Source of the DNA: an archaeon
GTDB taxonomy: Archaea; Iainarchaeota; Iainarchaeia; Iainarchaeales; JANQMZ01
Assembly (NCBI GenBank): GCA_028279805.1
Contig: JANQMZ010000007.1
Location: 409,092-473,091, forward strand
DNA length: 64,000 nucleotides
Direction: 5' to 3'
In this document: positions 4,195 to 60,068 of the stretch, one piece after another
Numbering within the stretch: the stretch's first letter is position 1
Layout: every line of letters begins with the position of its first letter
Made by a program: the position numbers and the translations under genes
Notes under the pieces: model-generated
What the model was told of the DNA's origin: nothing
Database searches by the model: none
Seen by the model: the letters and a program-made list of their open reading frames with translations, nothing else

Positions 4195-5418
4195 CTACCA
4201 CCTTTGAATCAGTTTTTTAAAATATTTTTCAGCATACCATGCAACAATAAACTGCGGAATTAATCTTGATTTTTTAAAAAACTGCAACAAGTTCCAGAAA
4301 ATTTTATTAAACAATGTTTTTGTTTCAGTTTTTTTCTTAACTTTTTCAAAATTTTTCAAAGCAAAATTTTCAGCAAACTTTCTCGGAAAATCTTTTGAGT
4401 TTTCACATAATTTTAACATTTTTTGAATTCTTTTGCTTAAATAAGCAAAATACATGCTTTCTATTTTATGTTTTGATACTCCGGTAAAATCTATTGCATT
4501 TCCCAGCCTTCCGCCACAATTTGAAACAAAAAATGGCACACTTAAAATTTTTCTTTTATGTAAAATTTTTTCAGCTTTCCAGGTAACAGGACTGTTGGAA
4601 CCGGGGCAAACAATTTTTGCTTTTATTTTTGAAGCATTTTTTTCATTAATTGAATAACCTCGGCCGCACGGAACAACCATGTCGCATTTTAATTCTAATA
4701 ATTTCAATAACGGAATTTTTTTCCAGTTTCCTTTTTGCAAAACAAATTTGTTTCCGTGTTTTTTTTGAAGTTGTAAAATTTTTTCAATATCTAAACCGTT
4801 TTCATTGTAAATGGCTCCATGATGAGTTGATAAGGCAATTATTTTTGAACCTTTTTTGTGAAAAAGTTTTGCTGCATTTAATCCAACACTTCCAAATCCT
4901 TCAATTGCAACTGAAGCATTTTCCAGTTCAATATTTTTCAGTTTGGCTGATTCAATTGCTGCAATAAAAACAGATAAAGCGGTAAAATAACCAGAAATTC
5001 CTTTTGTTCTTTTAACGCTTTTTTCTCCAATTGCGTGCATTGTTGAGTCTACTTCCTTTTGGCTTGTGTTCATATCTGCGCCAATGCCGTAAACACGCTT
5101 TTTAACAAGAGGTTTTGCTATTTCCGCAAAACGTTTTAACAAAAACATTTTTTTTTCTTTTGAAATTTTTTCAATGTCTGCAACAATTGCAGATTTTGCT
5201 CCACCTTTGGGCAAACCCAAAAATCCGCTTTTTAAAGTCATTCCTCTGGCCAAATCCTTAACTTCATCAAGGTTGGCATCTTTTATCATTCTCAAGCCGC
5301 CGGCACTTTGGCTGTTAACAGATGAATCAATTACAATGAATCCTTTTAATCCTGCAGAAGAGTCCTGAATTAAACAATACAATTGTCCGTCTAATGATTT
5401 AAATACCGGGTCAGTCAT
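4195..5418 (-). CDS. Glu/Leu/Phe/Val (ELFV) amino-acid dehydrogenase family protein, divergent, with a C-terminal extension of about 100 aa.
   Basis: 'GGLRM', catalytic-lysine region 'LPKGGAKSAIV' and the Rossmann motif 'GFGSVG'. Confidence 0.6.
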   Translation of the reverse strand: MTDPVFKSLDGQLYCLIQDSSAGLKGFIVIDSSVNSQSAGGLRMIKDANLDEVKDLARGMTLKSGFLGLPKGGAKSAIVADIEKISKEKKMFLLKRFAEIAKPLVKKRVYGIGADMNTSQKEVDSTMHAIGEKSVKRTKGISGYFTALSVFIAAIESAKLKNIELENASVAIEGFGSVGLNAAKLFHKKGSKIIALSTHHGAIYNENGLDIEKILQLQKKHGNKFVLQKGNWKKIPLLKLLELKCDMVVPCGRGYSINEKNASKIKAKIVCPGSNSPVTWKAEKILHKRKILSVPFFVSNCGGRLGNAIDFTGVSKHKIESMYFAYLSKRIQKMLKLCENSKDFPRKFAENFALKNFEKVKKKTETKTLFNKIFWNLLQFFKKSRLIPQFIVAWYAEKYFKKLIQRW

Positions 5419-19300: not shown

Positions 19301-20596
19301 TTGTTATTGATTCAAATGCTGGACACGCCTAACGAAGTTATCTGTGAAGTTTGCAAAATTCAGTTAGACAAAGTTTCAATGGTAAAAATTTTAACAGATT
19401 ATGAATTGTTTTTATTGAATCATCCGGCAAGAGTAATAACAATTAATATTCCAATGAAAATGGATTCCGGGGAAATAAAAGTGTTTCCTGCTTTCAGAAT
19501 TCAATACAATGATGCTCGCGGCCCTACAAAAGGAGGAATAAGGTTTCATCCCAATGTTAACATGGAGGAAGTAGAACAACTGGCTTTTTTAATGACATTA
19601 AAATGTTCACTGGCAAATATTCCTTTCGGAGGGGCAAAAGGAGGCATAACCGTTAATCCAAAAGATTTAAGTGAACGGGAATTGCAGACTTTAAGCAAAT
19701 TATATGTTAAAAATTTTCATCCGTTTATAGGGCAGGAAAAAGATATTCCTGCTCCGGACGTTAATACCAATCCGCAAATAATGGCCTGGATGCTGGAAGA
19801 ATATGAAACAATTTTGGGCAAAAGTGTTCCAGCAACTTTTACAGGCAAGCCTGAAGAATTAGGCGGAATTGAAATAAGAAATTCTTCAACTTCTTTAGGA
19901 GGTGCAATTGTTTTGAGAGAATATTTTAAAAGCATTGGAAAAAAACTTGAAGGAATAACAGTTGCAATTCAGGGATTTGGAAATGTTGGTTCACATATGG
20001 CCCGCATTTTAGATGAATGGAATGCAAAAATTGTTGCTGTAAGCGATGCATCAGGTGCTGTTTACAACAAAGACGGGTTGGATATTAAGGAATTGTTTGA
20101 AAAAAATCCAAATGCAATGTCTCTTGAAGGATTAAATGGTGAAAAAATTTCAAATGAAGAATTATTGGAATTGGATGTTGATGTTTTGATTCCGGCTGCA
20201 GTTGAAGACCAGATTAATGAAAAAAACATGAAAAACATTAAAGCATCCGTTATAATGGAAATGGCTAATGGTCCTGTAAGTGTTGAAGCTGATGATTTTT
20301 TGCAGGATAAAATTACAATAATTCCTGACATTCTGGCAAATGCCGGAGGAGTTACAGGCTCATATCTGGAATGGACTCAGAATTTAAAAAAAGAAGACTG
20401 GACAACAAAAGAATTGGAAACAAAACTTGAAGAATTCATGGTTAATGCTTTTAATGCAATGAATGATTATTCAAAAAAACATTCTTTTCCGATGAGAAAA
20501 AGTGCTTATGTTTTAGCTGTTGAACGAGTTTTAAAAGCTGAAGCAGCAAGAGGCAACATTTCAAGCATTAAAGCAAAACAAAACGGTTTGAAATAA
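19301..20596 (+). CDS. gdhA: Glutamate dehydrogenase (ELFV family).
   Basis: 'FGGAKGGI' and 'QGFGNVG' motifs. The N terminus and length are canonical for GDH. Confidence 0.85.
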   Translation: MLLIQMLDTPNEVICEVCKIQLDKVSMVKILTDYELFLLNHPARVITINIPMKMDSGEIKVFPAFRIQYNDARGPTKGGIRFHPNVNMEEVEQLAFLMTLKCSLANIPFGGAKGGITVNPKDLSERELQTLSKLYVKNFHPFIGQEKDIPAPDVNTNPQIMAWMLEEYETILGKSVPATFTGKPEELGGIEIRNSSTSLGGAIVLREYFKSIGKKLEGITVAIQGFGNVGSHMARILDEWNAKIVAVSDASGAVYNKDGLDIKELFEKNPNAMSLEGLNGEKISNEELLELDVDVLIPAAVEDQINEKNMKNIKASVIMEMANGPVSVEADDFLQDKITIIPDILANAGGVTGSYLEWTQNLKKEDWTTKELETKLEEFMVNAFNAMNDYSKKHSFPMRKSAYVLAVERVLKAEAARGNISSIKAKQNGLK

Positions 20597-21279: not shown

Positions 21280-21351
21280 GCCCTGGTAGTCTAGTGGTTA
21301 GGATACGGCCCTGTCGAGGCTGTGACTCGGGTTCGAATCCCGGCCAGGGCG
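21280..21351 (+). tRNA. tRNA-Asp (anticodon GUC). No CCA is encoded.
   Basis: Manual fold: acceptor GCCCUGG/CCAGGGC, anticodon loop CUGUCGA, T-loop GGUUCGAAUCC. Confidence 0.85.
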
Positions 21352-21373
21352 CTTTAAAATAATGGTGATGTGA

Positions 21374-21653: not shown

Positions 21654-22409
21654 GTGAATTTGTTTGAAGCAATAATTTTAGGAATTTTACAGGGAGTATT
21701 TGAATGGCTGCCTGTTAGCAGTCAGGGTCAAATTATTGCTGTTGCAATTGCTTTTTTTCAGATTTCAACACAGGAGGCTTTAAAGCATTCAATTTTTTTA
21801 CATACAGGAACTTTGATTGCTGCAATTATTTTTTTCAGAAAAGAATTAATTAAAATAATTCAAGGAGAAAACCCGGAATTAAGAAATTTTATTTTAATTG
21901 CTGTTTTGGCAACAATTATAACTGCTGTTCCGAGTTTTTTTATTTTAAAACAATTAATTTTTTCTTCAACAATTTTATTGTTTTTAATCGGATTTTTATT
22001 AATAATAACCGGATTATTACAAAAAATTAAACAAAAACAAATAAAACCAAAATTAAACAAAAAAAATTCAATAATATTAGGCTTAATGCAAGGCTTTTCA
22101 GTATTACCAGGAATAAGTAGGTCAGGAATAACAACAGCAACACTATTATTCGAAGGATTTGAACCGGAAGAAGCTTTTAGGATTAGTTTTTTGCTAAGTG
22201 TTCCAACAGTTTTAATTGGAGAAATAGCTTATGGATTAGTTGAAGGATTTAGCTTTGAATTTAATTCCTTAATTGCTTTAGTATTTGCTTTTGTATTCGG
22301 ATTAATATCAATTGATTTGCTGTTGAAACTGGCTAAAAGGATTAGCTTCAGTTGGTTTGCGATTGGTTTTGGATTAATTTATTTGATTATTGGGTTGGTT
22401 GGGGTTTGA
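21654..22409 (+). CDS. uppP: Undecaprenyl (polyprenyl) diphosphatase (UppP/BacA).
   Basis: 'FEWLPVSSQGQ' and 'GISRSGITTA' motifs. The start codon is GTG. Confidence 0.8.
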   Translation: MNLFEAIILGILQGVFEWLPVSSQGQIIAVAIAFFQISTQEALKHSIFLHTGTLIAAIIFFRKELIKIIQGENPELRNFILIAVLATIITAVPSFFILKQLIFSSTILLFLIGFLLIITGLLQKIKQKQIKPKLNKKNSIILGLMQGFSVLPGISRSGITTATLLFEGFEPEEAFRISFLLSVPTVLIGEIAYGLVEGFSFEFNSLIALVFAFVFGLISIDLLLKLAKRISFSWFAIGFGLIYLIIGLVGV

Positions 22410-22427: not shown

Positions 22428-23102
22428 CTAATCAAAAGGAATTAAACGATTCTCGATAAAATCTAACATCTCTTTAACATCTGACTCTTTATATTTATCA
22501 AAATGTCCGTGTGCTGCGTCACTACCAACATCAATATGTCCTTGAATTTTTCTCCAAAAAGATTTATCAAAAACCCCTTCAGATTTTAATTTATCATTAA
22601 TTGTACCGACCATTTCATTACCAGAAAGTTTAATTTCTTTTTTCTTACAAATATCTCTCAATTCTTCTTCAATAACAATTCTACCATAAATAGCTGCTGT
22701 GTCTTTATTTTTATTTTTCAAAAAATGTTTTGCCTGTTGAAGAATAGAATCAAAAATATCAGAAGCAACCAAATGATTAATTTTGTACAAAAAACCTTTT
22801 TTTATTTCCTCTTTTGCGCTTTCAAGTATCCTAACTGCGCTAGATAATTTCCCACGATAATTAAGCCCTCTGCTATTCAAAGCGTTTTGCAACATTTTAT
22901 AGTGGATTTCTTTACCAAAAGTTTTTTCAATTAAGTTTAAAGCAGAAGGTGCCCATTTTAACCACAGATAATATCCATCAGTATCCCTTATACGGCCCAA
23001 GTTTCTAATACTGCTTCTCATTATTGGCACTCTTTCGAATCCTACCTCGTTTATAAGCTCATTAAATCTTTTTAAAATAGAATCTCTCATCCAAAATTTC
23101 AC
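22428..23102 (-). CDS. Hypothetical protein, possibly HEPN-like (Rx4H motif 'RKIQGH').
   Basis: ORF at the edge of the defense island. Confidence 0.25.
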   Translation of the reverse strand: MKFWMRDSILKRFNELINEVGFERVPIMRSSIRNLGRIRDTDGYYLWLKWAPSALNLIEKTFGKEIHYKMLQNALNSRGLNYRGKLSSAVRILESAKEEIKKGFLYKINHLVASDIFDSILQQAKHFLKNKNKDTAAIYGRIVIEEELRDICKKKEIKLSGNEMVGTINDKLKSEGVFDKSFWRKIQGHIDVGSDAAHGHFDKYKESDVKEMLDFIENRLIPFD

Positions 23103-23134: not shown

Positions 23135-24322
23135 ATGGTGGTTATGGATGAGAGAATAGAAGAACATTTTTCAACATTGGACTTAGATTTAAGAAAAACT
23201 AGATTTTCTAGATTTATCGACCAAAAAGTCACTCCAGACGTTTTATCTTTCATTGCAGATTGTATAATGGCACATACTGGAGGAAATGAAGAAAAAAAAT
23301 TTAGAGTAAAGGACATATGGAACTCCGAATACTTCAAAAAAAACGTAATTCAAATATATAGCAAGCCGTCACCAGAAAATGAAACGGCGACACACGAATA
23401 TGACAAGTTTATTGGACAACCTATGAGACTTTTGAACTACGGAAAAATAATAGAATCAGAAAAAAAAGGGAACGCTAATTTTTACTGGTGCTCAAATCCA
23501 GAAATACTCAACTATATATCAATGAATGAAACATATTCATTTAATTTTCTTTATTTATATCTAAAAAAAGTTTTAGATGATAGCGGATTTTTACAACATA
23601 TAGAAAGATATAAGGAAAATGATAACCCGCAAAATTTTAGAGAATTGAAAAATAGGTTTCAAATATTTATTAGAGGGAACACAAAAATAAATACAGATGT
23701 TGAGATAAATAGGATCTTTCCAAAAGTGCTTAACATATTTTCTGTAAAATGGAACATACGAGGAAGTAAAAAGGGAAGAATTTCCAGACACAGATTCAAT
23801 TTTTCAGATTTAACTTACAATGAAATAAATTGGAGAGATATAAAAAAAGACAAGAGAACTACTAGAACAGAGGCACAAAATAGAGAATTGGAAAAAGTAA
23901 AAAAATATGAAAAGTATACTGTTGAAAAAGCCAAAAGGATAATAAGAAAAAAATATAGAGAAACAGAAATAAAAGATCGGTGGGCTGGAGGAAAAGCAAC
24001 ACAAGTGCACCATATTTTTCCGGAACACGAATATCCACAATTTGCAGCTTATCTTGAAAACCTAATAAAACTAACACCAGACCAGCATTTCACGAAAGCA
24101 CACCCAAACAATAGTACAAAAGATATAGATAAAACATATCAACTTGATTTGGTTATAGCTAAAATATACAGCATAGAAGATTCTTTATCAAAAAAAGAAA
24201 CATATTACCATAAAGATAGACTCATAGAACTATTGAACGAAACATTAGGAATCGAAATGTCTCAAATAACCTCCTTTGATGAAATCAGAAAAAAAATAAA
24301 AGAAATTCAACTAAGTTTCTAA
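23135..24322 (+). CDS. Putative HNH-type restriction endonuclease.
   Basis: C-terminal 'QVHHIFPEHEYPQFAAYLENLIKLTPDQHFTKAH' His-Me finger motif. Convergent with the MTase. Confidence 0.5.
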   Translation: MVVMDERIEEHFSTLDLDLRKTRFSRFIDQKVTPDVLSFIADCIMAHTGGNEEKKFRVKDIWNSEYFKKNVIQIYSKPSPENETATHEYDKFIGQPMRLLNYGKIIESEKKGNANFYWCSNPEILNYISMNETYSFNFLYLYLKKVLDDSGFLQHIERYKENDNPQNFRELKNRFQIFIRGNTKINTDVEINRIFPKVLNIFSVKWNIRGSKKGRISRHRFNFSDLTYNEINWRDIKKDKRTTRTEAQNRELEKVKKYEKYTVEKAKRIIRKKYRETEIKDRWAGGKATQVHHIFPEHEYPQFAAYLENLIKLTPDQHFTKAHPNNSTKDIDKTYQLDLVIAKIYSIEDSLSKKETYYHKDRLIELLNETLGIEMSQITSFDEIRKKIKEIQLSF

Positions 24323-26854
24323 TTTTCCGAAAAAATAAATTGAATTGCTATCGATGTTCATAGATCTAGTGCTTCTGTTTCTAGCAACGCTATAAAATTC
24401 TCTGAACTCAGAAGTGCTATAATAATTCAATGTTTTCTCATCAATTTCTGTTCCATTTTTTGGTTGAGCAATAGCCACTGAACCATCACAAATAGCGTTT
24501 TCCGGCATAAAACATGCTCTGGGATAATAAGTAAGATTTGGTATTAAAACAGAATTTCTAGAATTTAAAAATTTTTTAACCGTTAAGGAAGATGCCTCTC
24601 TATTACTGATATATTTATCGTAACCGGAAATATCTTTTATTTTGTTATTCCCAATATTTCTAGATTTTAAAACTCTATATTTTCCTTTGTCGTAAAGAAT
24701 TTTATTTGTAATCTGTCTATCTCTAAAAACTTTGAATATGTCAAATTTCATCTTTTTACTTATTTTATTAAAAAAATTGTTCCTGTAAATTAACCAATAA
24801 GGAAAAATATCTGAAGCCATCTCCAATTGCTCTAAAAATCTTGCGTTTTTAGTTACATAAGACTCTATTTTTACCATATTCTTGGGGGTTCTTCTATTTC
24901 TTTTCAAGATGAACCCAATAGTTTCTATCTTAACATCAAAAGCTTTTTCGCCAAAATCAACAATTTTTACAATGTTATATTGATTCATTAATTCCCTTGT
25001 TTTATTAAATTCAGGAGTAGACAATAAACTTTTTGGGACAATAAATGAAATAAAATCGCCCAATGTTATTGCTCTTTCAATGAAAAAAGAAAAAAGATTA
25101 TTTGTATCTTTGTTATTTTTCCCTCGCTTGTAATGTTTTAACAATTTTTTGTTGTTAACAACTTTTTTAAACGGAGGATTCCCCAATATAACATCATATT
25201 TAAAATTGCCATTATAAAAAATAAAATCAGCGTTTATATATTTTATTTTGAAATTATTTGGGATTCTTAATTTTTTTACTAAAATTTTTAAGAGGGTTAT
25301 TGATTTTTTGTCTATATCTATAACATCTAAACTTACTTTTTTATTGTTTTTATATTTAGCTATAAGTGAGGGTAAAAAATTTCCTGCACCCACTGCGGGT
25401 TCAAGTAAGTGAATCTCTTTCTTGTTCTTAAAATCTGGTAAATCCTTAACAAGAGAAAAACAAATATTTGAGGGGGTATAGTAAGCGGAATTTTTTAATC
25501 TTTTTGCATTAGAAAGTTCGGCGATCTTAGAAAGTGTATTGTATGAATATTTTTTTAGGTTTGTATTAATAAATGACTTAAGCTTACTGTGAGAGTCTAA
25601 TTTGTTTTTTTCTATTATTTTTATTATTTTAGGTTTTGTTAACTCTTGATCTTTCAGTGCCCCTCTTATATTTCCAGCTATTTTTCTAAAAATAATTGTT
25701 GGCACAGCTTCTCCCACACACCTCCTTATGTTCAACTCATTTTTCTTTAAAAAAAATCTTTTCTTGTCCAAAGACTTATGATTGAGCACGTCAAAAGGAA
25801 TTTTTGACCATTTAAAGTTCCTTGGAATTGTCATTAGTTTCATGATTTCTCTAATTGAAAAAACTCTGTGGTCTCTTGGATGTATAGTCCACTGACTTGC
25901 TAAAATATCATTTCTAGTATGTATACAATAAGCTGGTTTATCCCAGTAACATCTTTTGTATTTATCACCACTTTTGTTTTTGTTAAACACTATTTTATCA
26001 TTTTTTATTCTGTGAGGAATTCTAGCACGAGCTCTATTCTCAAAGGCAGATTGCCCTTCTTTCAAATTTTCTATCCATTTAAGCATATATTTTGGAAATT
26101 TTCTATAGGAATGATAAATGTCCGAATAATCTATTTCGCCCATTTTTTTTAAAGGTTTTAATTTTCCAATGGTTTGTCTAACGGTTTTTTCTTTTTCTTT
26201 TGATGGAAAAAGCTCTAATGGGGAAATATCTATTAAATCTTTTCTAACTCCAATTACAAGAGTTCTTGTTCTTTGAGAAGGGCTTCCATAGTCCTTAAAA
26301 TTTATAACTTCAGAATGAACATTATAATTTGTGAGATTTGACTCTATTGCTTCTTTTATTGACTTTAGATTTCCGTCAGAGTCAGTGCATTTTGTATTTA
26401 AAAAAGTCCTAACATTCTCAAACAAAAATATTTTTGGATTAATTTTTTTAGTTACTATTATGGATTCAACTACCAATGAATTTCTTTTTAACTCGTTTTT
26501 TTTATTATGATTCGCTACAGACATTCCCTGACAAGGAGGCGTAGCCACAACAACATCAATTTCTTTTAAGCCGGTCTTTCTTTTCCAATGCTCTGTTTCT
26601 TTGTAAACTTTTTTTTTGATTTTTTCTTGACTCAAGTCTCCTAAAATATATCCTGAATCATGCTCGCATTTATTATTATATTTTTGAATATTGAGTCTTT
26701 CTTCAGAAACTTCGTTTGTAGCTACACAGTTAAATTCTGTAAGATTGAACCCATTACATCCCACACCAGCACCACTGAAAAGGCTTACATAAGAAAGTGT
26801 CTGGCCTTTGCTTGAATCTTTATGGCGAGGCATTTTTTCATTCTCCCTTTCCAA
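24311..26854 (-). CDS. Fused DNA methyltransferase: N-terminal C5-cytosine MTase plus C-terminal gamma-class N6-adenine/N4-cytosine MTase.
   Basis: m5C motifs 'FSGAGVGCNGF' (I), 'PPCQGMS' (IV), 'FLFENVRTF' (VI), 'QRTRTLVIG' (VIII). These are followed by 'LLEPAVGAGNFLP' (I) and 'ILGNPPFKK' (IV). Confidence 0.8.
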   Translation of the reverse strand: MERENEKMPRHKDSSKGQTLSYVSLFSGAGVGCNGFNLTEFNCVATNEVSEERLNIQKYNNKCEHDSGYILGDLSQEKIKKKVYKETEHWKRKTGLKEIDVVVATPPCQGMSVANHNKKNELKRNSLVVESIIVTKKINPKIFLFENVRTFLNTKCTDSDGNLKSIKEAIESNLTNYNVHSEVINFKDYGSPSQRTRTLVIGVRKDLIDISPLELFPSKEKEKTVRQTIGKLKPLKKMGEIDYSDIYHSYRKFPKYMLKWIENLKEGQSAFENRARARIPHRIKNDKIVFNKNKSGDKYKRCYWDKPAYCIHTRNDILASQWTIHPRDHRVFSIREIMKLMTIPRNFKWSKIPFDVLNHKSLDKKRFFLKKNELNIRRCVGEAVPTIIFRKIAGNIRGALKDQELTKPKIIKIIEKNKLDSHSKLKSFINTNLKKYSYNTLSKIAELSNAKRLKNSAYYTPSNICFSLVKDLPDFKNKKEIHLLEPAVGAGNFLPSLIAKYKNNKKVSLDVIDIDKKSITLLKILVKKLRIPNNFKIKYINADFIFYNGNFKYDVILGNPPFKKVVNNKKLLKHYKRGKNNKDTNNLFSFFIERAITLGDFISFIVPKSLLSTPEFNKTRELMNQYNIVKIVDFGEKAFDVKIETIGFILKRNRRTPKNMVKIESYVTKNARFLEQLEMASDIFPYWLIYRNNFFNKISKKMKFDIFKVFRDRQITNKILYDKGKYRVLKSRNIGNNKIKDISGYDKYISNREASSLTVKKFLNSRNSVLIPNLTYYPRACFMPENAICDGSVAIAQPKNGTEIDEKTLNYYSTSEFREFYSVARNRSTRSMNIDSNSIYFFGKLET

Positions 26855-26966
26855 AGTGAACTGTCTCTAAAACAAACTTTTGAGACGAACCTATAACATA
26901 ATACTTTTATAATTTAAAAGTTGACGATATCAGTTTAAAGCTACTGAGAGCACATTTCCGCTGAAA

Positions 26967-27179
26967 TTACTGCGAATTTTTACACTGACATGGATTTCCG
27001 CCAGACATCATTCCGGAAACCCAGTTATGCACTTTCACTTTTCCACATTTTTTACAACTTGCGTTTTTTACAGCTCTGGCGGTTCTTTCGTTCCATTTTT
27101 CCATTATTTTGTCTTCTTCTCTTCTTGAATTCAAAAATTCTTTTAATTCAATTATTTCAGTTTTAGTTAATTCAGTCAT
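26967..27179 (-). CDS. Small Cys-rich (zinc-ribbon-like) hypothetical protein.
   Basis: 'CKKCGK...CQC'. Confidence 0.3.
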   Translation of the reverse strand: MTELTKTEIIELKEFLNSRREEDKIMEKWNERTARAVKNASCKKCGKVKVHNWVSGMMSGGNPCQCKNSQ

Positions 27180-27744: not shown

Positions 27745-30381
27745 CTATTTTTCAACCTGCTCAACCATACTCCTCCAAAGCACTTCATCTTTCTTATTTT
27801 CAATCAAATCTTCTAAGAATGTTTCCGGATTGTTTTTCCATTGCAAAAATTGGTTTATTTTGGTTGAGGCTGTTGTGAACGCTGATTGGGATGGCTGTCT
27901 GTCATCCAGTTTTGATGAAATTGTGCCGTCATTGATTCTTTTTCTTAAACCAATGTAGCCGATGGCTACTTTTATTTTATCCAAGGGAATGTTTTTTGAT
28001 TGAGATAACATTCTTTTGTATAATTCTAATTGTTGCCTGTGATTGGATGAATAATCAGCACTTTTATCTGTTTTCCAGTCCACTATTAGATATTCTTCTC
28101 CGTTGGAAAAAACACTGTCAATTTTTCCGGTAAAATTAATTTCATCTTTTGTGTCAACAATTTTTGAAATTGATAAGGTTATTGTGGTTTCAACTTCTTC
28201 AACATTTGGATAAGTTTTTTTAATTTCTTTAATGAACATCTGAACATTTTTAATAAATGGTTCAGTTTCTTTGGTTTTTTCAAATTTTTGGTTTTTTAAA
28301 ATTTTTTCAGCAGCATTATGAACATCTGAGCCAAGAGTTGAAGCTTTAAACGGAATTGTTTGAATTTTTAAAATCCTGTTAACAAAATAATCATAAGAAC
28401 TTTTAGGCAAAGCACTATAAGAAAGGCGATTAACGCCGGCAAAATGTTTTTTAACAAAATCTTTTAACCAGGGTTTACTATTTTCTAATTCTTGCCGGGC
28501 TTCTTTGAATTGTTTATTTACAAATAAATTAAATGCTCTTTTTTGCAATTCGTTAAAGCTTTCAGGTGATTCTGTTTCAAATTGTAATTCTTGTTTTTCT
28601 GAAAAATCATTCAAAAAATCAGCTGGTTTGCCAGTTAAAATGTAAAGATTTTTTTTGGCTCTGGTAAATGCAACAAAGTTTGAACGCAGTGTTTCTTCTT
28701 CCAGTTCTTCTTCTGCGTTAATTTTTTTGGATTTTAAAATTGCTTCAACAACAGCATCCTGAAAACTTGCACTATTTGAAGATTTTGAAGGAGCAAAAAT
28801 AACTGTTTCAAATTCTTTTCCTTTTGCTTTATGAATTGTTGTTAGAATGATTTTTTGTTCAATGTCTGATTCATTTGCAAAAAGGTCAGCTGATTCTAAA
28901 TAAGCAGTAAAATTGGCTAAATCCTTGTTTTCTAATAAGGAAATGGCTTCATTGCAGGAACTTTGAACATTCTGGGCAGCCAGCAAATATTCTTCTCCAT
29001 AAGTTAAAGCAACCGGTATGATTTTTTCTTTAAATAACAAATTGATATCCTCAATGCTTGAAATTGATTCTCTTAATTGTTTGAATTCCGAGCTTTTTGC
29101 AAAAATATCATTCAATGTTAAATTATAGTTTGAGGATAATTCAAATGCTTCATGCAAGGAAATGGGAAAAAAGCTGGTAAACATTGCGTTTTTAACAAAT
29201 TCAATGTTGTTTGAAAAAATTCCTCGCAGAAAAGTAATAATGTTGTTTTTTGCTTCATTTGAAGCTGAAAAATAAGTGGAAGAATGTTCAATGTTGTGTT
29301 TTTCAAATTCTTTTGAAATTTCCCTTATTTGATTATTTGTTCTGGCAATGACAGCCACTTGGTTTGAATTTTTTAACAATTTTTGAGTTAATGCTCTAAT
29401 TGCCTGGTTTTGATTATCCTGCACATCAAAAATAACCGGTTTTGGTCCTTTTTCTGCTGTTTTGTTTTCAAGGTTTTCTAATGCTTTGATATATTGTTCT
29501 TCTTTTGTTTTTTTAGAAAAATCTTCTTTTGCAAAATTTAAAATTTCGTTTGAACTTCTAAAATTTTCAGTTAAAACAAATTCTTTTGAGTTGTTGAATT
29601 TTTCAAAATTTAAAATGGAGCCTCCTTGAAAACCAAAAATAGCCTGCTTTTGGTCTCCAACCGCAACAAAGTTTTCACAGGATTTCAAGGCAATATCAGC
29701 TTCCAGTTTGTTTACATCCTGCAGTTCGTCAACTAGAACATATTTGAATTTTTTAACATTGTCTAATTCCAAAAATTTTATTAGCAAATCATTGTAATCA
29801 AATCCCTTGTTTGCCTTAATTGTTTCATAATGCTGAAAAATTTTAACAAATTCTTCAAGAAATTGTTCAAGTTCTTCTTTTGAATAATTTTTAAAATCTT
29901 CCAAAAAAGTTTTTGAATCTTGCAAATCAATTGAATCGGGCATGACGCCAAAACTTTTCAAATACCTAATCAGGCTTTCTATTTTTGGAACAATTGTATT
30001 AATCAAATATTCATCGCCGTAGTTTAAAACTTCATTTTGTTTCAAATAATCATAAATTGAATAACGCAAAAGATTTGAGGAAATAATATTATCATTGTCA
30101 ATGTTGTCCAATGCAAACGAATGAAAGGTAAAAACCTGCAATTTTCCCAAATCAATTTCAACTTTTTCATCATTTAAAATTTTAATAATTCGGTTTTCCA
30201 TTTCAGCACGGGCTTTATTGGTAAAAGTCAGGCACAAAATTTCTTCCGGTTTCAAGCCTTTTTTGATTAAATCCACATATTTAAACGCTAATAAGAGGGT
30301 TTTGCCGGTGCCTGGGTTAGCAATAATCAAAGCATTTCCATCATGCTTAATAATTTCTTGCTTTTCTTTATTTGGTTTCAT
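27745..30381 (-). CDS. UvrD/PcrA-like SF1 helicase fused to a C-terminal RecB-family (PD-(D/E)xK) nuclease.
   Basis: Helicase motifs: 'ANPGTGKT' (Walker A), 'VDELQDVN' (motif II), 'AVGDQKQAIFGFQGG' (III), 'NFRSS' (IV), 'TIHKAKGKEFETV' (VI). Nuclease motifs: 'GKIDSVFSNGEEYLIVDWKTDK' and 'QLELYKRM'. Confidence 0.8.
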   Translation of the reverse strand: MKPNKEKQEIIKHDGNALIIANPGTGKTLLLAFKYVDLIKKGLKPEEILCLTFTNKARAEMENRIIKILNDEKVEIDLGKLQVFTFHSFALDNIDNDNIISSNLLRYSIYDYLKQNEVLNYGDEYLINTIVPKIESLIRYLKSFGVMPDSIDLQDSKTFLEDFKNYSKEELEQFLEEFVKIFQHYETIKANKGFDYNDLLIKFLELDNVKKFKYVLVDELQDVNKLEADIALKSCENFVAVGDQKQAIFGFQGGSILNFEKFNNSKEFVLTENFRSSNEILNFAKEDFSKKTKEEQYIKALENLENKTAEKGPKPVIFDVQDNQNQAIRALTQKLLKNSNQVAVIARTNNQIREISKEFEKHNIEHSSTYFSASNEAKNNIITFLRGIFSNNIEFVKNAMFTSFFPISLHEAFELSSNYNLTLNDIFAKSSEFKQLRESISSIEDINLLFKEKIIPVALTYGEEYLLAAQNVQSSCNEAISLLENKDLANFTAYLESADLFANESDIEQKIILTTIHKAKGKEFETVIFAPSKSSNSASFQDAVVEAILKSKKINAEEELEEETLRSNFVAFTRAKKNLYILTGKPADFLNDFSEKQELQFETESPESFNELQKRAFNLFVNKQFKEARQELENSKPWLKDFVKKHFAGVNRLSYSALPKSSYDYFVNRILKIQTIPFKASTLGSDVHNAAEKILKNQKFEKTKETEPFIKNVQMFIKEIKKTYPNVEEVETTITLSISKIVDTKDEINFTGKIDSVFSNGEEYLIVDWKTDKSADYSSNHRQQLELYKRMLSQSKNIPLDKIKVAIGYIGLRKRINDGTISSKLDDRQPSQSAFTTASTKINQFLQWKNNPETFLEDLIENKKDEVLWRSMVEQVEK

Positions 30382-30388
30382 TTGAAAA

Positions 30389-32131
30389 TCACGATGGTTT
30401 TGTCAGCTCTGCTATTTTTTCTATAATTAGATCTGCTCTTTGTTCGATAAAAGCATCAAAATTATCTTTCCAAATGGCAGAATTTTTCTCATAAGGAGGA
30501 ATTAGATTTGACTTTAGGTCTTCTTCATAATGCTTATTCTTTTGTTTTACTTTTTTTTCAAAATAAGATGAAGGATTGTCATTCCCGATTATTTGATTGG
30601 ATTTTTTTGGCAGAAAACAGATATTAACAACACAATCTACTTTATCTTTGTTAGAATTTATAACCGCATTAGATTTTTTGGGAAAAATGTGATGGAGTTC
30701 GCTTTTTTTAGGATTTATGAAAGAATCATAAATTGGAATCTCAGTGTGATTTGTGATGTCAAATGGTTTTTGACTAGCCATTAAACATAGAAGTGATCTG
30801 CAAAAACCACTATTCAAATTTAATTTTTCGCTTAACAATGCCTCTCTATCACTAAAATCTTTTTCAAGTTTAAAGTTAAAATCAGATGCTTTAGTTAGAA
30901 ATTTTTTGAAAAGGTTACAATCATTTTTTATTTCTTCATTAGTTGCCCCCAAGTAATCTGCATTAAACGATTTTGTCCAAAACCAATTTTCAATAGCTTT
31001 TTTTATGTTATCAGATTGTGGATTGTCTTCTAACAAATAAAAGAAATATGCTAGGGAAACTATCATTGGAGAATATGGTAATATTTTTGGAGAAGCAACT
31101 CCAAGTTTGTTTGTTAAAAAAAGTATTGCTTCTTTAAGAGAATTTGATGCTTTATCCCAGTTGTCTTCAAGATCTTTTGACTTTAGTTTAAATAAATCGG
31201 ATTCCTTGCACGCTCCAAATCTAATTAAAGATATTAGTCTTATAATTGAAGTTTCATCCAAATCATCATAATTTAGCTTACCCAATCCTGTTGTTTCATC
31301 ATATAATTGTTCTAAATTGTCTCTCAAATAAAAATCATCAGTGAAAGTGTTAGCTGTTATTAAATCAATAGTTGAAAGTTTCTTTCCACGCATGTTTACT
31401 CTGGTAAATAATTCACACACTTCTTCTATTGGGACATTTTGTAAACTTATTATGGACAAAGAGTAATTTGAACTTAATCTTTCATTCACTTCATGATATA
31501 ATGTTGCAATAGATTTGTCCATATCTCTTAGTTTTAGAAGTAAATCCATGTCCGGTTTTATTAACTTACCCACTTCAACAAAATATTCCTTTTCTTCAGG
31601 ATTTTGTTTTTGAATTTTTTGGAATTCTTTTTCAGTAAAAAATAAGTCAATATCTTTCTTTTTTTCTAAATCCTCCTCTTCAATTTCCTTTTTAGCTGCT
31701 TTTAGAGAAAAATATATTGTGAAATCAATTGGGTTTTTTCTATTTTGAGGTGTTTTTTTGCCGCCCAAACTAGAAACGATCAAAGAAGTTAATCTTTGTT
31801 GTCCATCTAAAACATAGTTGAAAAAAGAACCAGTACGGTCTTGACTAATTGATCTTACAAATTCAAAATTATCAACAATTTGCCGGTTATCAGGAAGTTT
31901 TTGTTCGCTTTCCCAAATTATAAGGCTGCCTATAGGATAATGCTTATATATGCTGTCCCAAAGAGCTTTGATGTCTTTTGGATCCCAAACAAAATGCCTT
32001 TGGAATTTAGGAATAGTGTAATCATATTCAACTTTTGAATTATTATCAGGATTATCTGGAATCATTTCAGAAAGTTTTCTTGAAAACACTGTTATCTTGC
32101 GTTTTTTATACATCAATTCACATCCTTGCAA
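30389..32131 (-). CDS. GmrSD-family protein (DUF262 ParB-like domain plus DUF1524 His-Me finger), a putative type IV modification-dependent nuclease.
   Basis: 'LDGQQRLTSL' DUF262 hallmark and C-terminal 'ELHHIFPKKS'. It lies 7 nt upstream of the helicase gene. Confidence 0.7.
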   Translation of the reverse strand: MQGCELMYKKRKITVFSRKLSEMIPDNPDNNSKVEYDYTIPKFQRHFVWDPKDIKALWDSIYKHYPIGSLIIWESEQKLPDNRQIVDNFEFVRSISQDRTGSFFNYVLDGQQRLTSLIVSSLGGKKTPQNRKNPIDFTIYFSLKAAKKEIEEEDLEKKKDIDLFFTEKEFQKIQKQNPEEKEYFVEVGKLIKPDMDLLLKLRDMDKSIATLYHEVNERLSSNYSLSIISLQNVPIEEVCELFTRVNMRGKKLSTIDLITANTFTDDFYLRDNLEQLYDETTGLGKLNYDDLDETSIIRLISLIRFGACKESDLFKLKSKDLEDNWDKASNSLKEAILFLTNKLGVASPKILPYSPMIVSLAYFFYLLEDNPQSDNIKKAIENWFWTKSFNADYLGATNEEIKNDCNLFKKFLTKASDFNFKLEKDFSDREALLSEKLNLNSGFCRSLLCLMASQKPFDITNHTEIPIYDSFINPKKSELHHIFPKKSNAVINSNKDKVDCVVNICFLPKKSNQIIGNDNPSSYFEKKVKQKNKHYEEDLKSNLIPPYEKNSAIWKDNFDAFIEQRADLIIEKIAELTKPS

Positions 32132-32738
32132 TTTTTCCTGCGTCGGTTAGCTTTAATCCGTCTTTTTCTTCCAGGAGGCCTTTGTGTTTTAATTCTTTTA
32201 CGTTCCGATAAAGCATTGCACGGCTTTGTTTCAAGATTCCTGCTAATTTTGACAGATTTGGTGTTGATTCAATGTTTTCCAGTATTTGCAGTTGTGATTC
32301 GCTTAAATCAAATGACAATATTGGCAAGGTTATTATTTGGTTTTCATCAGCAGGGCAATAATAAATGTTTTTGATTTTCTTAGACCGGGAATAAGAGCCA
32401 AATAATAATCCTAATGCTTGTGTTTTTTTGCTTGGTGTGATGTTTACAAAAATTTCATCGTCTTTTGGAAGAACATCAATAATGTTGACGCATTCTTTTG
32501 CAATTTTAACAATGTCATACAATTCAATTTTTCTTTGCTTTACTTCAAGAACATTTCCAAAGCTTTCAACAATTGAATCAATTGTTTTTTGTTGGGTTTT
32601 ATTAGGCTTTTTGTCCACAAGCAAAAAAATCCTGTCAATTCCAAGCTTTGTTGTAAGCAAGACAATTGAATCGCTTGAATAAGTTGTTGTTATTAGTACC
32701 TTAGCCATTTGAAGCCTCTTTATAATAAAAACAGCCAA
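32118..32738 (-). CDS. Csa3-like regulator: N-terminal CARF-like Rossmann domain plus C-terminal winged HTH.
   Basis: N terminus 'MAKVLITTTYSSDSIVLLTTKLG', a glycine-rich loop 'TQALGLLFGS', and a C-terminal wHTH 'LYRNVKELKHKGLLEE'. It overlaps the GmrSD gene start by 14 nt. Confidence 0.4.
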   Translation of the reverse strand: MAVFIIKRLQMAKVLITTTYSSDSIVLLTTKLGIDRIFLLVDKKPNKTQQKTIDSIVESFGNVLEVKQRKIELYDIVKIAKECVNIIDVLPKDDEIFVNITPSKKTQALGLLFGSYSRSKKIKNIYYCPADENQIITLPILSFDLSESQLQILENIESTPNLSKLAGILKQSRAMLYRNVKELKHKGLLEEKDGLKLTDAGKIARM

Positions 32739-54172: not shown

Positions 54173-55636
54173 ATGGAAAAATGGCCATTAATTAAATCAT
54201 ATTTTGACCAGGCATCATTTGTTGACCAGGAAATAGCATCATTTAACCAGTTTGTTGATGAAAAATTACCGGAAATTGTTAAAGAAAATGATACAGTTAT
54301 TCCAAAAATTGAAGAAGTTAAAATTGAATTATCTGACATTGAAGTTTTAAAACCAAGAATTGTTGAGGCTGACGGTTCGCCAAGAACAGATTTTTATCCA
54401 ATGGAAGCACGAATAAGAAACAGAACTTATTCCGGGCCAATTTTTATTACAATGAAAATGTTAAGGCGAAATGTTGAACAGGATGTAAGGAGAGCATACA
54501 TTGGTGAGTTACCAATCATGCTGAAAAGTAATCGTTGTTGGCTAAACGGAAAAAATGCTGAAGAATTAATTGAAATGGGAGAAGACCCGATGGATTTTGG
54601 CGGTTATTTTGTTGTAAACGGTTCTGAAAAAGCTTTGATGACACAGGAAGTTTTGTCTTCAGACAGAGTTTTAATTTCAACTTCAGCCACAGAAGATGTT
54701 ATTTCGGAAGTTATCAGTACAAAAGGAGCTTTTAAGGGCAGAGTCAGAGTTATCAGAAAAAAAGATGGTTCCTTTGATGTAAAGTTTCCAAGCTCTCCCA
54801 GAAAGCTGAGCCTGTTTACATTGTTAAAAGCTTTGGGTTTGGAATCACAAAAACAAATAATGGATGCTTTTCCGGATGACAAAATTGTGAAAAACGATTT
54901 GTTACTGAACTGGGAAGAACTGGATGTAAAAAAACAGGAAGAAGCTTTGGACAAAATTGGCAAAAGTGTTGCACCCGGCCAGATAATTGATTATCGATTA
55001 AAAAGAGCACAGGAAGTAATTGACGGGTTTTTGTTGCCGCATATTGGCCAGGATAAAGAGGATAGAATTGCAAAAGCACATTATTTGGTGATGATGGCAA
55101 CCAAAAGCATTGAACAGGCATACGATTTGAGAGATGAAGATGACAAAGACCATTATGCAAACAAAAGACTGGAATTGTCAGGAAAATTAATGGAACATTT
55201 GTTCAGATATGCATTCAAATATTTTGCAAAAGACTTAAAGTTTCAGATTGACAGAACAATTACAAGAAGAAGAAAACTGAATATTAGTACAGTAGTAAGG
55301 CCTGATGCCATTACTGAAAGGATAAGGTTTGCAATGGCAACAGGAAACTGGATTGGAAGGGCAACAGGCGTATCAAAATTTATGGACAGGGTTAATTATT
55401 TAAGTCCTTTAACTGACATCAGAAAAGTTAAAAGTCCTTTAAACAAAAACCGTGAACTGTATGAAGCAAGAGATGTTCACGGAACACATTGGGGCAGGTT
55501 AGGACCAATTGAAACTCCTGACGGACCGCAATGTGGCTTGGTTAAAAATTTGTCATTATTGGCAAAAGTTACAACAGATGCAAGTGAAAAAAATGTTGAA
55601 AAAATTTTGGAAAAACAGGGAGTAAAACTGGAGTGA
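54173..55636 (+). CDS. rpoB2: DNA-directed RNA polymerase subunit B'' (N-terminal half of Rpb2).
   Basis: Position and sequence conservation. Confidence 0.9.
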   Translation: MEKWPLIKSYFDQASFVDQEIASFNQFVDEKLPEIVKENDTVIPKIEEVKIELSDIEVLKPRIVEADGSPRTDFYPMEARIRNRTYSGPIFITMKMLRRNVEQDVRRAYIGELPIMLKSNRCWLNGKNAEELIEMGEDPMDFGGYFVVNGSEKALMTQEVLSSDRVLISTSATEDVISEVISTKGAFKGRVRVIRKKDGSFDVKFPSSPRKLSLFTLLKALGLESQKQIMDAFPDDKIVKNDLLLNWEELDVKKQEEALDKIGKSVAPGQIIDYRLKRAQEVIDGFLLPHIGQDKEDRIAKAHYLVMMATKSIEQAYDLRDEDDKDHYANKRLELSGKLMEHLFRYAFKYFAKDLKFQIDRTITRRRKLNISTVVRPDAITERIRFAMATGNWIGRATGVSKFMDRVNYLSPLTDIRKVKSPLNKNRELYEARDVHGTHWGRLGPIETPDGPQCGLVKNLSLLAKVTTDASEKNVEKILEKQGVKLE

Positions 55637-55641
55637 GTTAA

Positions 55642-57456
55642 ATGAGTGTAAAATCAAAAGTTTATATTGATGGACGACTTGTCGGATTTCACCCAAATCC
55701 TGAAAAACTTTCAAAAGATTTGGTTAATTCCAGGCGTGAAAATAAAATTGACCCTCAGATTAATGTTGCTTTGAATGACAAAACAAAAGAGGTTTACATT
55801 AACACTGATTCGGGCAGAGTTCAAAGGCCTTTGATTGTTGCAAAAAACGGAAAAACAACTTTAACTGAAGAAATTTTGCAAAAAATTGAAAAAAAAGAAT
55901 TAAAATGGCAGGATTTGGTTGAAAAAGGAATAATTGAATACTTGGATGCAGAAGAAGAAGAAAATGCTTTGATTGCAGAAGAAGAAAAAGAGTTAACAGC
56001 CGGACACACCCATATTGAAATAAATCCTTTAACAATGTTAAGTGTCATTTCTTCATTTATTCCGTATTTGAATCACAACATGGCAGGAAAAGCATTGCAC
56101 GGAGCCAAAATGTTTAAACAGGCAGCAGGCCTGGGGCAGATTAATTATAATTTGAGAACCGATACAGAGGGTTATTTGCTGCATTATCCTCAGAAAAGCC
56201 TGGTTAAAACAAAAACAATGGATATGATTAACTTGGACAGGCGTCCTCAGATTCAAAATTTTGTCGTGGCAATAATGCCATATTATGGTTTTAATACGCT
56301 GGACGCGGTCATAATAAATGAAGCGGCTTTGCAGAGAAGCATGGGAAGAATGGCTTATTTTAGGACTTATGAAGCAAGCCAGAAAAGATATCCGGGCGGG
56401 CAAAAAGATGCTTTTGAAATTCCGGATGAAGAAACAGTTGGCTTTTTAGGAGATGAAACTTATGCTGCTTTAGGCGAGGATGGTTTTGCTGAAATAGGAG
56501 CAAAAGTTAAAGAAAAAAGCGCGGTTATTGGAAGAACAAGCCCTCCGAGATTTTTGGAGGAGGTGTCAGATTTTGGAGTTGTGGATGAAAAGAAAAGAGA
56601 TGCATCAGTTTCTGTCAGAAAAGAAAAAGGCGGATATGTTGACAGGGTTTTAATAACAGAAGATACAAACGGTTCAAAACTTGTAAAAGTAAAAATTCGT
56701 TCCGACATGAAGCCGGAAGTGGGTGACAAGTTTTCATCAAGGCACGGGCAAAAAGGAGTTGTAGGATTAATTGTTCCGGAAGAAGATATGCCTTTTACTT
56801 CACAGGGAGTAAAACCTGATTTGCTTTTGAACCCGCATTCAATTCCAAGCAGAATGACAATGGGGCATTTGCTTGAAATGCTTGCAGGAAAAGCAGCAAG
56901 CTTTAAAGGAGAACAAATTGATTCAACTCCTTTTAACAGCACTTCAATGGAAGAACTTGAAAAAATGCTGGAAAAAAGAAATGTGAACAAAACAGGCAGG
57001 GAAATTTTTTACGACGGAATTACAGGGGAAAAAATTCAGGGAGAAGTTTTTACAGGCGTTGTAGCTTACAGGCGTTTGTATCACATGGTTGCCCATAAAA
57101 TGCAGGCCCGGTCAAGAGGCCCCGTGCAAATTTTAACAAGACAGCCGACTGAAGGAAAGGAAAAAGAAGGAGGCTTAAGATTCGGGGAAATGGAAGGAGA
57201 AACACTGGTAGGGCACGGAGCGGCAATGCTGTTGCAGGAAAAACTTGTTGAAGATTCTGACAAGTCAGTGCAGTTTGTTTCAGAAAAATCAGGATTAATT
57301 GCAATGAATGACAGAATCAGGAACAGAAAATATTGCCCGGTCGGAGGCAGCGGAAAAATTTACCCGGTTGAAATGGGACACAGTTTCAAGTTATTGTTAG
57401 ATGAATTAAAGGCTTTGGGAATTTATCCAAGGCTTGTGTTAAAAGATAAAGCGTGA
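55642..57456 (+). CDS. rpoB1: DNA-directed RNA polymerase subunit B' (C-terminal half of Rpb2).
   Basis: 'GDKFSSRHGQKGV' and 'RFGEMEGE'. Confidence 0.9.
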   Translation: MSVKSKVYIDGRLVGFHPNPEKLSKDLVNSRRENKIDPQINVALNDKTKEVYINTDSGRVQRPLIVAKNGKTTLTEEILQKIEKKELKWQDLVEKGIIEYLDAEEEENALIAEEEKELTAGHTHIEINPLTMLSVISSFIPYLNHNMAGKALHGAKMFKQAAGLGQINYNLRTDTEGYLLHYPQKSLVKTKTMDMINLDRRPQIQNFVVAIMPYYGFNTLDAVIINEAALQRSMGRMAYFRTYEASQKRYPGGQKDAFEIPDEETVGFLGDETYAALGEDGFAEIGAKVKEKSAVIGRTSPPRFLEEVSDFGVVDEKKRDASVSVRKEKGGYVDRVLITEDTNGSKLVKVKIRSDMKPEVGDKFSSRHGQKGVVGLIVPEEDMPFTSQGVKPDLLLNPHSIPSRMTMGHLLEMLAGKAASFKGEQIDSTPFNSTSMEELEKMLEKRNVNKTGREIFYDGITGEKIQGEVFTGVVAYRRLYHMVAHKMQARSRGPVQILTRQPTEGKEKEGGLRFGEMEGETLVGHGAAMLLQEKLVEDSDKSVQFVSEKSGLIAMNDRIRNRKYCPVGGSGKIYPVEMGHSFKLLLDELKALGIYPRLVLKDKA

Positions 57457-57460
57457 TAAA

Positions 57461-60061: not shown

Positions 60062-60068
60062 TTAAAAA

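Follow-up and report, generated by a model that had tools for sequence, protein, structure and literature searches.

The window, a stretch of 64,000 nucleotides from a small archaeal genome, contains a pair of genes that is very probably an intact, self-contained two-gene restriction-modification module of the type IIS HpyAV/Hin4II kind. The pair consists of an endonuclease gene (R) and a single gene for a fused methyltransferase (M), and we place it with HpyAV and Hin4II because of its profile matches, motif register, architecture and protein lengths. That the two genes form a restriction-modification pair, as the original prediction from the nucleotide sequence had proposed, is borne out by the open reading frames, by matches of both products to type II models of PADLOC and by the linkage of R and M throughout their families. 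Apart from its host, the pair is an ordinary representative of its kind.

A fused methyltransferase and its convergent endonuclease

The reading frames and the sequence place the two genes in convergent orientation, the predicted overlap at their 3' ends being exactly as described (Table 1), and neither frame contains an internal stop. The longest reading frame of M (24311-26854, minus strand) starts with TTG and gives the 847 residues of the original prediction; the database gene call starts at the ATG at 26833, preceded by GGGAG, and gives 840 residues. We consider this ATG the more likely start.

Table 1. Features of the restriction-modification locus (positions within the window)
Feature	Positions	Strand	Description	Basis
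Endonuclease gene R	23135..24322	+	395 aa, HpyAV/Hin4II-like type IIS	ORF, PADLOC REase_II model, homologues, AF2 model
N-terminal region of R	23135..23860	+	about aa 1-242; helical, with beta-hairpins at aa 106-119 and 209-220; presumed DNA recognition	
Beta-beta-alpha-metal (HNH) motif of R	23987..24109	+	aa 285-325; H292, H293, N309, H318, H323	
Fused methyltransferase gene M	24311..26833	-	840 aa from ATG	ORF, database gene call, PADLOC MTase_II model
C5-cytosine DNA methyltransferase domain of M	25805..26791	-	aa 22-350 (847-aa numbering)	PF00145, TIGR00675, PDB matches, motif order
Gamma-class N6-adenine DNA methyltransferase domain and target-recognition region of M	24323..25627	-	aa 410-844	PF07669, PDLC03382
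3'-end overlap of R and M	24311..24322	.	12 nt	ORF coordinates, sequence

Judged by its sequence, M genuinely fuses an m5C DNA methyltransferase to an amino DNA methyltransferase. The N-terminal half matches PF00145 in Pfam (residues 22-350, E = 2.1e-40), exceeds the cut-off of TIGR00675 (105.9 bits against 100.65) and matches HhaI and HaeIII in a search of the PDB. Its C5 motifs FSGAG (residues 26-30), PPCQ (106-109), ENV (146-148), QRTR (motif VIII, 194-197) and GEAVP (motif X, 381-385) follow the canonical order I, IV, VI, VIII, X, and the amino-methyltransferase motifs I (EPAVGAGNF, 485-493) and IV (NPPF, 559-562) come after them. The gamma-class motifs had been predicted in exactly this form; of the predicted C5 motifs, the first three are canonical and in order, while motif VIII reads QRTR and not QxRxR.

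The C-terminal half matches PF07669 (Eco57I; residues 505-638, E = 5.2e-14 in Pfam), the 445-position PADLOC model PDLC03382 (residues 410-844, E = 1.5e-92) and, weakly, TaqI in the PDB. Because of PF07669 and this type II methyltransferase model, we assign it as a gamma-class DNA N6-adenine methyltransferase rather than an N4-cytosine, RNA or protein methyltransferase. The earlier designation "N6A/N4C" is thereby narrowed to N6A. Both domains hold under profile alignment (PF00145 and PF07669), and the matches to DNA methyltransferase profiles speak against a C-terminal enzyme acting on RNA or protein, a reading that the original prediction had left room for.

Taken as a whole, M aligns from residue 18 to 845 with positions 5-819 of the 823-position PADLOC MTase_II model PDLC03277 (E = 3.7e-229), and its C5 half also matches a 387-position MTase_II model (E = 3.5e-130). 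At 823, 387 and 445 positions, the three PADLOC models are exactly as long as M.HpyAV, M1.Hin4II and M2.Hin4II, respectively, according to the published enzyme lengths. These model matches and model lengths, rather than pairwise alignment, indirectly indicate that M is homologous to all three enzymes.

Over nearly its entire length (residues 6-386), R matches the PADLOC REase_II model PDLC03488 (E = 2e-104), a model whose underlying enzymes are not confirmed as HpyAV or Hin4II. No family of Pfam or NCBIfam covers R, and sequence searches of the PDB with R alone, with a family profile and with a profile of the catalytic fragment returned nothing meaningful. In the AF2 model (pLDDT 88.5, pTM 0.83), a low-confidence linker (residues 231-241) parts a confidently modelled N-terminal region from the C-terminal part of the protein. 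Foldseek yielded no statistically significant fold match for either the N-terminal region or the catalytic fragment; the former gave just weak matches to winged-helix DNA-binding proteins (SqrR, SmtB and FoxO1, E about 1). The N-terminal region is presumed to be the DNA-recognition part because of the domain logic of type IIS enzymes, as given for HpyAV (PMC2816704).

The C-terminal part carries the HNH His-Me motif that had been noticed in the 395-residue protein. H292, H293, N309 and H318, as well as H323, are unchanged in all 26 homologues compared, and in the AF2 model two strands (residues 290-293 and 310-313) and a helix (315-322) form a beta-beta-alpha element. The HNH family of Pfam was found in eight of 16 fragments from the family, weakly (best E = 0.002), and HNH_2 was weakly matched in relatives as well; the catalytic fragment of the window's own R had no Pfam HNH match. 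When this fragment was submitted to Foldseek in isolation, the matches were, by title, mainly HNH nucleases, none of them individually significant. Based on the conserved residues, the topology of the model, the weak Pfam matches of the relatives and the fold matches of the fragment, we assign R as a His-Me (HNH) endonuclease, although none of these tests taken singly is statistically strong for the window's R.

Distribution and genomic context

R has more than 1000 homologues, most of whose database copies are unnamed or labelled "hypothetical protein", and relatives are present in 377 species-representative genomes. The clade of nucleases of about 395 residues is widespread among DPANN-like archaea and, on the bacterial side, among Bacteroidota and Patescibacteria (CPR). 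For M, 5435 relatives were found, and nearly all of the 120 listed have the fused architecture. R adjoins both methyltransferase halves in every one of the 72 fetched loci with enough sequence, and the halves lie in one reading frame in 67 of these. A convergent layout of R and M occurs in 12 of the 72, the window's own locus included, and a split methyltransferase is seen at a few genome loci and in a relative on an Acinetobacter plasmid. The window's proteins have lengths typical of their families (395 aa for R, against about 390-400 aa; 840 aa for M, against about 835-860 aa).

The pair sits within a neighbourhood of defence genes. Four neighbours, the DUF4145-like, 70-aa zinc-ribbon, UvrD-nuclease and GmrSD-like genes, were considered as parts of the restriction-modification system and rejected, since their adjacency is not conserved: at other loci they are not kept beside the pair, with the exception of a weak helicase match at a single locus (L058).

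The locus had also been described as markedly more AT-rich than the flanking housekeeping genes, which was taken to suggest horizontal acquisition. The GC contents of R (0.295) and M (0.289) lie about 1.3 standard deviations under the gene mean (0.333, SD 0.031), GC3 is within one standard deviation, and core genes are equally low, for example the BacA-family (UppP) gene at 21654-22409 (0.286). R and M are no outliers, and base composition is a weak argument for horizontal transfer. Mobility of the pair is better supported by its patchy distribution across domains and by the fact that its neighbours are not conserved beside it elsewhere.

In the window, CCTTC/GAAGG, the site of HpyAV and Hin4II, is mildly depleted (O/E 0.76, z = -2.3, rank 36 of 512), a value that is not decisive for specificity, and GAGAC/GTCTC is not depleted (O/E 0.85).

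Alternative readings of the locus

The original prediction regarded a dual-chemistry fused methyltransferase with an HNH endonuclease as an unusual architecture. In its strongest form this would make the pair a genuinely new architecture without precedent, and the missing Pfam or NCBIfam family over R, together with the many copies that are unnamed or "hypothetical", could be taken to point that way. We give this reading next to no credence: the same domain order has been published for HpyAV (PMC2816704), whose dual methylation has been mapped (PMC3936762), existing PADLOC models match the window's proteins end to end, and the layout recurs in hundreds of genomes, with R relatives in 377 species-representative genomes and a fused architecture in nearly all of the 120 M relatives listed.

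It is also very unlikely that the pair belongs to the Alw26I/Eco31I/Esp3I family, the other known type IIS group combining m6A, m5C and HNH, which acts at GTCTC-type sites. TIGR02987, the model for the adenine methyltransferases of that family, weakly matches residues 457-589 of M (E = 5.6e-12), and Eco31I is counted among the HNH restriction enzymes (PMC2816704). The match, however, scores 45.2 bits where the cut-off lies at 353.5 bits, and it extends over the SAM-binding core alone, while the model that M matches end to end is a different one from that of the Alw26I family, and sites of the GAGAC/GTCTC type show no depletion in the window. Moreover, a circular permutation puts motifs IX-X ahead of I-VIII in the C5 methyltransferases of the Alw26I family (PMC5944983). 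Membership in this family is effectively refuted because the motif order in M is canonical.

Somewhat more weight, if still little, falls to a decayed or domesticated remnant, in which R would be inactive and the fused M an orphan (epigenetic) methylase. Decay has a precedent in the family, HpyGORF49P with a frameshift in its HNH site (PMC2816704), and the weak avoidance of CCTTC would fit. Yet both proteins are full length in comparison with their families, R keeps all invariant catalytic residues, the motifs of M are all intact and the frames are uninterrupted, as befits an intact module of the HpyAV/Hin4II kind.

Proposed mechanism and comparison with known systems

By homology, we propose which bases this module methylates, which sequence it recognises, how far from that sequence it cuts and what the individual residues do. 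The target would be asymmetric, with one strand consisting entirely of pyrimidines and the other entirely of purines, as is CCTTC/GAAGG in the characterised relatives. Such a target could be marked at C alone on one strand and at A alone on the other, and one polypeptide would combine C5 and N6A domains because the pyrimidine strand offers C and the purine strand offers A. The N-terminal C5 domain would thus mark the pyrimidine strand and the C-terminal gamma-class N6-adenine domain the purine strand. The 395-residue R would bind the unmethylated target via its N-terminal domain and cleave on one side of it, a few bases away (at 6/5 in the case of HpyAV), with a single C-terminal beta-beta-alpha-metal (HNH) site, in which H293 would act as the general base and H292, N309 and H318 would be metal-binding or structural. 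The rationale for a dual-chemistry fusion, namely that a site with a pyrimidine and a purine strand needs a cytosine and an adenine methyltransferase, has already been published.

The actual recognition sequence may differ from CCTTC, since HpyAV or Hin4II and environmental endonucleases of similar size (385-393 aa) were reported to share just 29-34% identity (PMC2816704). From these 2010 figures for similar environmental reading frames, the clade to which the window's R belongs is probably about one-third identical to HpyAV. One of our two R-family searches was seeded with the Aliarcobacter butzleri endonuclease, which is 44% identical to the window's R, and its best 120 matches were listed. 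No H. pylori protein was among the best 120 matches of either search or among the best 80 of the 377 genome loci, and none of these 80 loci came from a species of the 2010 table. We tentatively raise the possibility, without favouring it, that the clade of about 395-residue nucleases reads an asymmetric site other than CCTTC, which would be a type IIS specificity not described before. That the clade occurs in an archaeon with a small genome further hints at an exchange of defence modules between ultra-small bacteria and archaea.

Both proteins, unnamed in the databases, can now be correctly annotated, and the HpyAV/Hin4II kind, listed in 2010 mainly from mammal-associated bacteria, now extends to environmental lineages in the hundreds, archaea among them. 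Type IIS enzymes whose specificity is altered might be drawn from the family; in general biological terms the finding carries little weight.

Among known systems, those of Alw26I, Esp3I and Eco31I resemble the pair in that m6A and m5C protect opposite strands of an asymmetric site, and the Eco31I nuclease is likewise an HNH enzyme. Some members also have fused methyltransferases. They are nevertheless a separate family, with a permuted C5 domain where that of the window is canonical. HpyAVI (CCTC/GAGG) and HpyAII (GAAGA/TCTTC) share the pairing of a polypyrimidine/polypurine site with a cytosine and an adenine methyltransferase: M2.HpyAVI (m5C) with M1.HpyAVI (m6A), and M2.HpyAII (m4C) with M1.HpyAII (m6A). 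They differ in having separate methyltransferase genes, other specificities and adenine methyltransferases of the beta class, whereas that of the window is gamma (PMC3936762). Closer still is Hin4II of Haemophilus influenzae RFL4 (CCTTC 6/5), which has both methylation chemistries and an HNH-type endonuclease, but whose two methyltransferases are encoded by separate genes rather than fused.

HpyAV of H. pylori 26695 (hp0053/hp0054), a type IIS enzyme cutting CCTTC 6/5, was described in 2010 together with its architecture and a table of ten putative systems (PMC2816704). M.HpyAV is a C5 and N6A fusion (PMC2816704) and generates m5C in CCTTC and m6A in GAAGG, as mapped by SMRT sequencing in H. 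pylori (PMC3936762). As in the window, a single methyltransferase carries an N-terminal C5 domain followed by a C-terminal gamma-class N6-adenine domain (823 aa in HpyAV, 840 aa in the window), and the two-gene module is completed by an endonuclease of about 400 residues with a C-terminal HNH motif. The residues H294, H295, N311 and H320 of R.HpyAV, an HNH enzyme in which they were verified as catalytic by mutagenesis (PMC2816704), correspond with identical spacing to H292, H293, N309 and H318 of the window's R. The two systems differ in gene order, tandem with M before R in HpyAV and convergent in the window, and in their hosts, a bacterium for HpyAV and an archaeon for the pair described here.

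Domains of the methyltransferase and the endonuclease

The genes for the predicted endonuclease (REase) and the fused methyltransferase (MTase) are convergent, with 12 nt common to both reading frames. In the database gene call the MTase has 840 residues and starts at an ATG at 26833 preceded by a GGGAG box, which is more likely the true start than the upstream TTG; positions below nevertheless follow the 847-residue numbering. Most of the methyltransferase motifs claimed in the original prediction are confirmed, namely FSGAG (26-30), PPCQ (106-109) and ENV (146-148) for the C5-cytosine half, which also carries GEAVP (381-385), and EPAVGAGNF (485-493) and NPPF (559-562) for the amino-methyltransferase half, while the motif given as QxRxR reads QRTR (194-197) and does not strictly conform. 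Pfam assigns PF00145 (C5 DNA methylase) to residues 22-350 (E = 2.1e-40) and PF07669 (Eco57I-type N6-adenine DNA methylase) to residues 505-638 (E = 5.2e-14), the protein scores above the family cut-off of NCBIfam TIGR00675 (dcm), and in PDB sequence searches its first half matches HhaI and HaeIII and its second half, weakly, TaqI. The motifs are therefore borne out by profile alignment, and the C-terminal half belongs with the DNA adenine methyltransferases rather than with enzymes acting on a substrate other than DNA.

The REase matches no Pfam or NCBIfam family, and PDB sequence searches with it returned no meaningful match. Its residues H292, H293, N309, H318 and H323 are invariant across the family. 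In a confident AlphaFold model based on 26 homologues (pLDDT 88.5, pTM 0.83), residues 290-322 are predicted to form a beta-beta-alpha element, with H292 and H293 on a strand (290-293), a second strand (310-313) directly after N309, and H318 on a helix (315-322). The Pfam HNH profile PF01844 gave weak matches (best E = 0.002) to the catalytic fragments of 8 out of 16 relatives and none to that of the REase itself. When the full model was searched with Foldseek, the only matches were weak ones of the N-terminal part to winged-helix structures. The 60-residue catalytic fragment modelled alone gave 17 matches, none of them significant (E = 3-10), most being HNH nucleases by PDB title (retron-associated HNH nuclease complexes, CBASS Cap5, the NmeCas9 HNH domain) and the remainder teneurin-2 entries, whose aligned stretch we take to be an HNH-like toxin domain. 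Taken together, the conserved residues, the model, the weak Pfam HNH matches and the fold matches of the fragment support a putative His-Me nuclease whose recognition region is N-terminal, the arrangement to be expected of a type IIS enzyme.

Genomic setting

The pair lies within a run of defence-type genes, none of which is a conserved neighbour of the pair in other genomes. The only tRNA gene in the window is located about 1 kb upstream of this run and could be an integration landmark. The pair had been described as AT-rich and foreign-looking, yet its GC content of 0.29 compares with a gene mean of 0.333 (SD 0.031) and its GC3 lies within 1 SD, so that composition does not mark it as foreign.

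Features of the window discussed in the text
Feature	Position	Strand	Remarks
REase ORF	23135-24322	+	395 aa, ORF listing
MTase ORF	24311-26854	-	847 aa from TTG start, ORF listing
UvrD helicase with C-terminal PD-(D/E)XK nuclease	within 27745-32738	-	878 aa; PADLOC likeness to GajB, DRT-associated helicases
GmrSD-like DUF262 protein	within 27745-32738	-	580 aa; PADLOC PDC-M55C and HEC-05
HFX_2341_N/CARF-like protein	within 27745-32738	-	206 aa
DUF4145-like protein, opposite side of pair	22428-23102	-	224 aa
tRNA-Asp (GTC)	21280-21352	+	
Inverted repeat GTCTC-N14-GAGAC	26863-26886		intergenic
Zinc-ribbon ORF	26967-27179		70 aa
Split RNA polymerase subunits	54173-61346	+	Rpb2-type 487 + 604 aa; Rpb1-type 866 + 425 aa
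Dehydrogenase-family ORF	4195-5418	-	by Pfam
Dehydrogenase-family ORF	19301-20596	+	by eye from translation alone

The inverted repeat, located 30-50 nt before the ATG of the MTase, might serve as an operator or as the terminator of the upstream zinc-ribbon ORF, but with arms of just 5 bp it may well be due to chance. Elsewhere in the window, the split archaeal-type Rpb2 and Rpb1 subunits indicate an archaeal host, and two ORFs of the Glu/Leu/Phe/Val-dehydrogenase family occur within 15 kb of one another. Both R-M proteins are encoded on an NCBI contig of 853 kb, a size that together with the GC content of 33% suggests a DPANN-like host lineage.

Distribution and gene layout of related systems

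Relatives of the REase number more than 1000 and those of the MTase 5435 at E <= 1e-20, the best 120 of the latter being mostly about 800-970 residues long and nearly all carrying both PF00145 and PF07669. Among species-representative genomes, 377 were found to carry a REase relative, and such relatives span Bacteroidota, Patescibacteria, Planctomycetota, Gammaproteobacteria and archaea (Pacearchaeota, Methanosarcinales). A REBASE-predicted CCTTC m5C methyltransferase from Methanobrevibacter is also included in a review of archaeal R-M systems (PMC11033074).

In every one of the 72 fetched loci that offered sufficient sequence, the REase adjoins both MTase halves, 60 of these loci being arranged in tandem (MTase then REase) and 12, including the window's own, convergent. 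Both halves occupy one uninterrupted frame in 67 of the 72 when read with translation table 11. Of the five exceptions, at least the Gracilibacteria locus L056 may be an artefact of that table; Gracilibacteria read UGA as glycine. Given these counts, the fusion and the convergent layout are both unremarkable.

At a locus of a Candidatus Pacearchaeota archaeon (L055, 454-2936), the halves are out of frame with each other and 93 nt apart, representing either a natural split as in Hin4II or a frameshift; a Hin4II-like split layout is found on an Acinetobacter plasmid. In Aliarcobacter butzleri (L082, 5001-8725; Logan SRR24988450), a cassette encoding an 846-residue MTase followed by a 394-residue REase sits between ureF and a gene for a cobW-family GTPase, probably ureG. 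It thus appears to lie inside a urease gene cluster and looks like a mobile R-M module inserted into an operon.

Relation to characterised R-M systems

Like the pair described here, systems of the Alw26I/Eco31I/Esp3I family use both m6A and m5C methylation alongside an HNH nuclease. The C5 domains of that family are, however, circularly permuted (PMC5944983), whereas the C5 domain in the window is canonical in motif order, and TIGR02987 scores 45 bits on the MTase against a cut-off of 353.5; membership in this family was therefore rejected.

The PADLOC type II MTase model PDLC03277 aligns over nearly its whole length (positions 5-819 of 823) with MTase residues 18-845 (E = 3.7e-229), PDLC03370 (387 positions, E = 3.5e-130) and PDLC03382 (445 positions, E = 1.5e-92) each match one half of the protein, and the type II REase model PDLC03488 matches the REase (E = 2e-104). 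With homologues of the two genes adjoining each other elsewhere, this bears out the proposed restriction-modification pair. The lengths of the three MTase models equal those published for M.HpyAV, M1.Hin4II and M2.Hin4II (PMC2816704). The architecture had been considered unusual, but besides being matched by existing models and common among relatives it has a published precedent in HpyAV of H. pylori 26695, whose MTase is a C5 and N6A fusion in the same order and whose recognition sequence is CCTTC, with cleavage at 6/5 (Chan et al. 2010, PMC2816704). Ten more putative systems given in that study likewise have fused MTases, and it also includes two environmental REase ORFs, 385-393 residues long.

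As to the recognition site, CCTTC/GAAGG is only mildly depleted in the window (O/E 0.76, z = -2.3). The environmental REases of similar size share 29-34% identity with HpyAV or Hin4II (PMC2816704), which leaves room for a site other than CCTTC. The most under-represented 5-mer by z-score is CCAGG/CCTGG (CCWGG; 62 against 105 expected, O/E 0.59, z = -4.2), more depleted than CCTTC, which might reflect another R-M specificity in the host genome.

Mutagenesis has verified H294, H295, N311 and H320 in the HpyAV REase, an HNH enzyme (PMC2816704), and H292, H293, N309 and H318 of the REase are spaced identically at an offset of two residues. M.HpyAV, classified as "IIS; Gamma, 5mC", was shown by SMRT sequencing to place m5C in 5'-CCTTC-3' and m6A in the complementary GAAGG (Krebes et al., PMC3936762), a dual chemistry explained by a CCTTC-type site offering only C for methylation on one strand and only A on the other (PMC2816704). 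That the REase belongs to the HpyAV/Hin4II kind is suggested by its PADLOC match, by the register of its motifs and by the conserved linkage of REase and MTase genes. Judged by sequence, the pair is an ordinary module, a putative and as yet uncharacterised member of this known kind.
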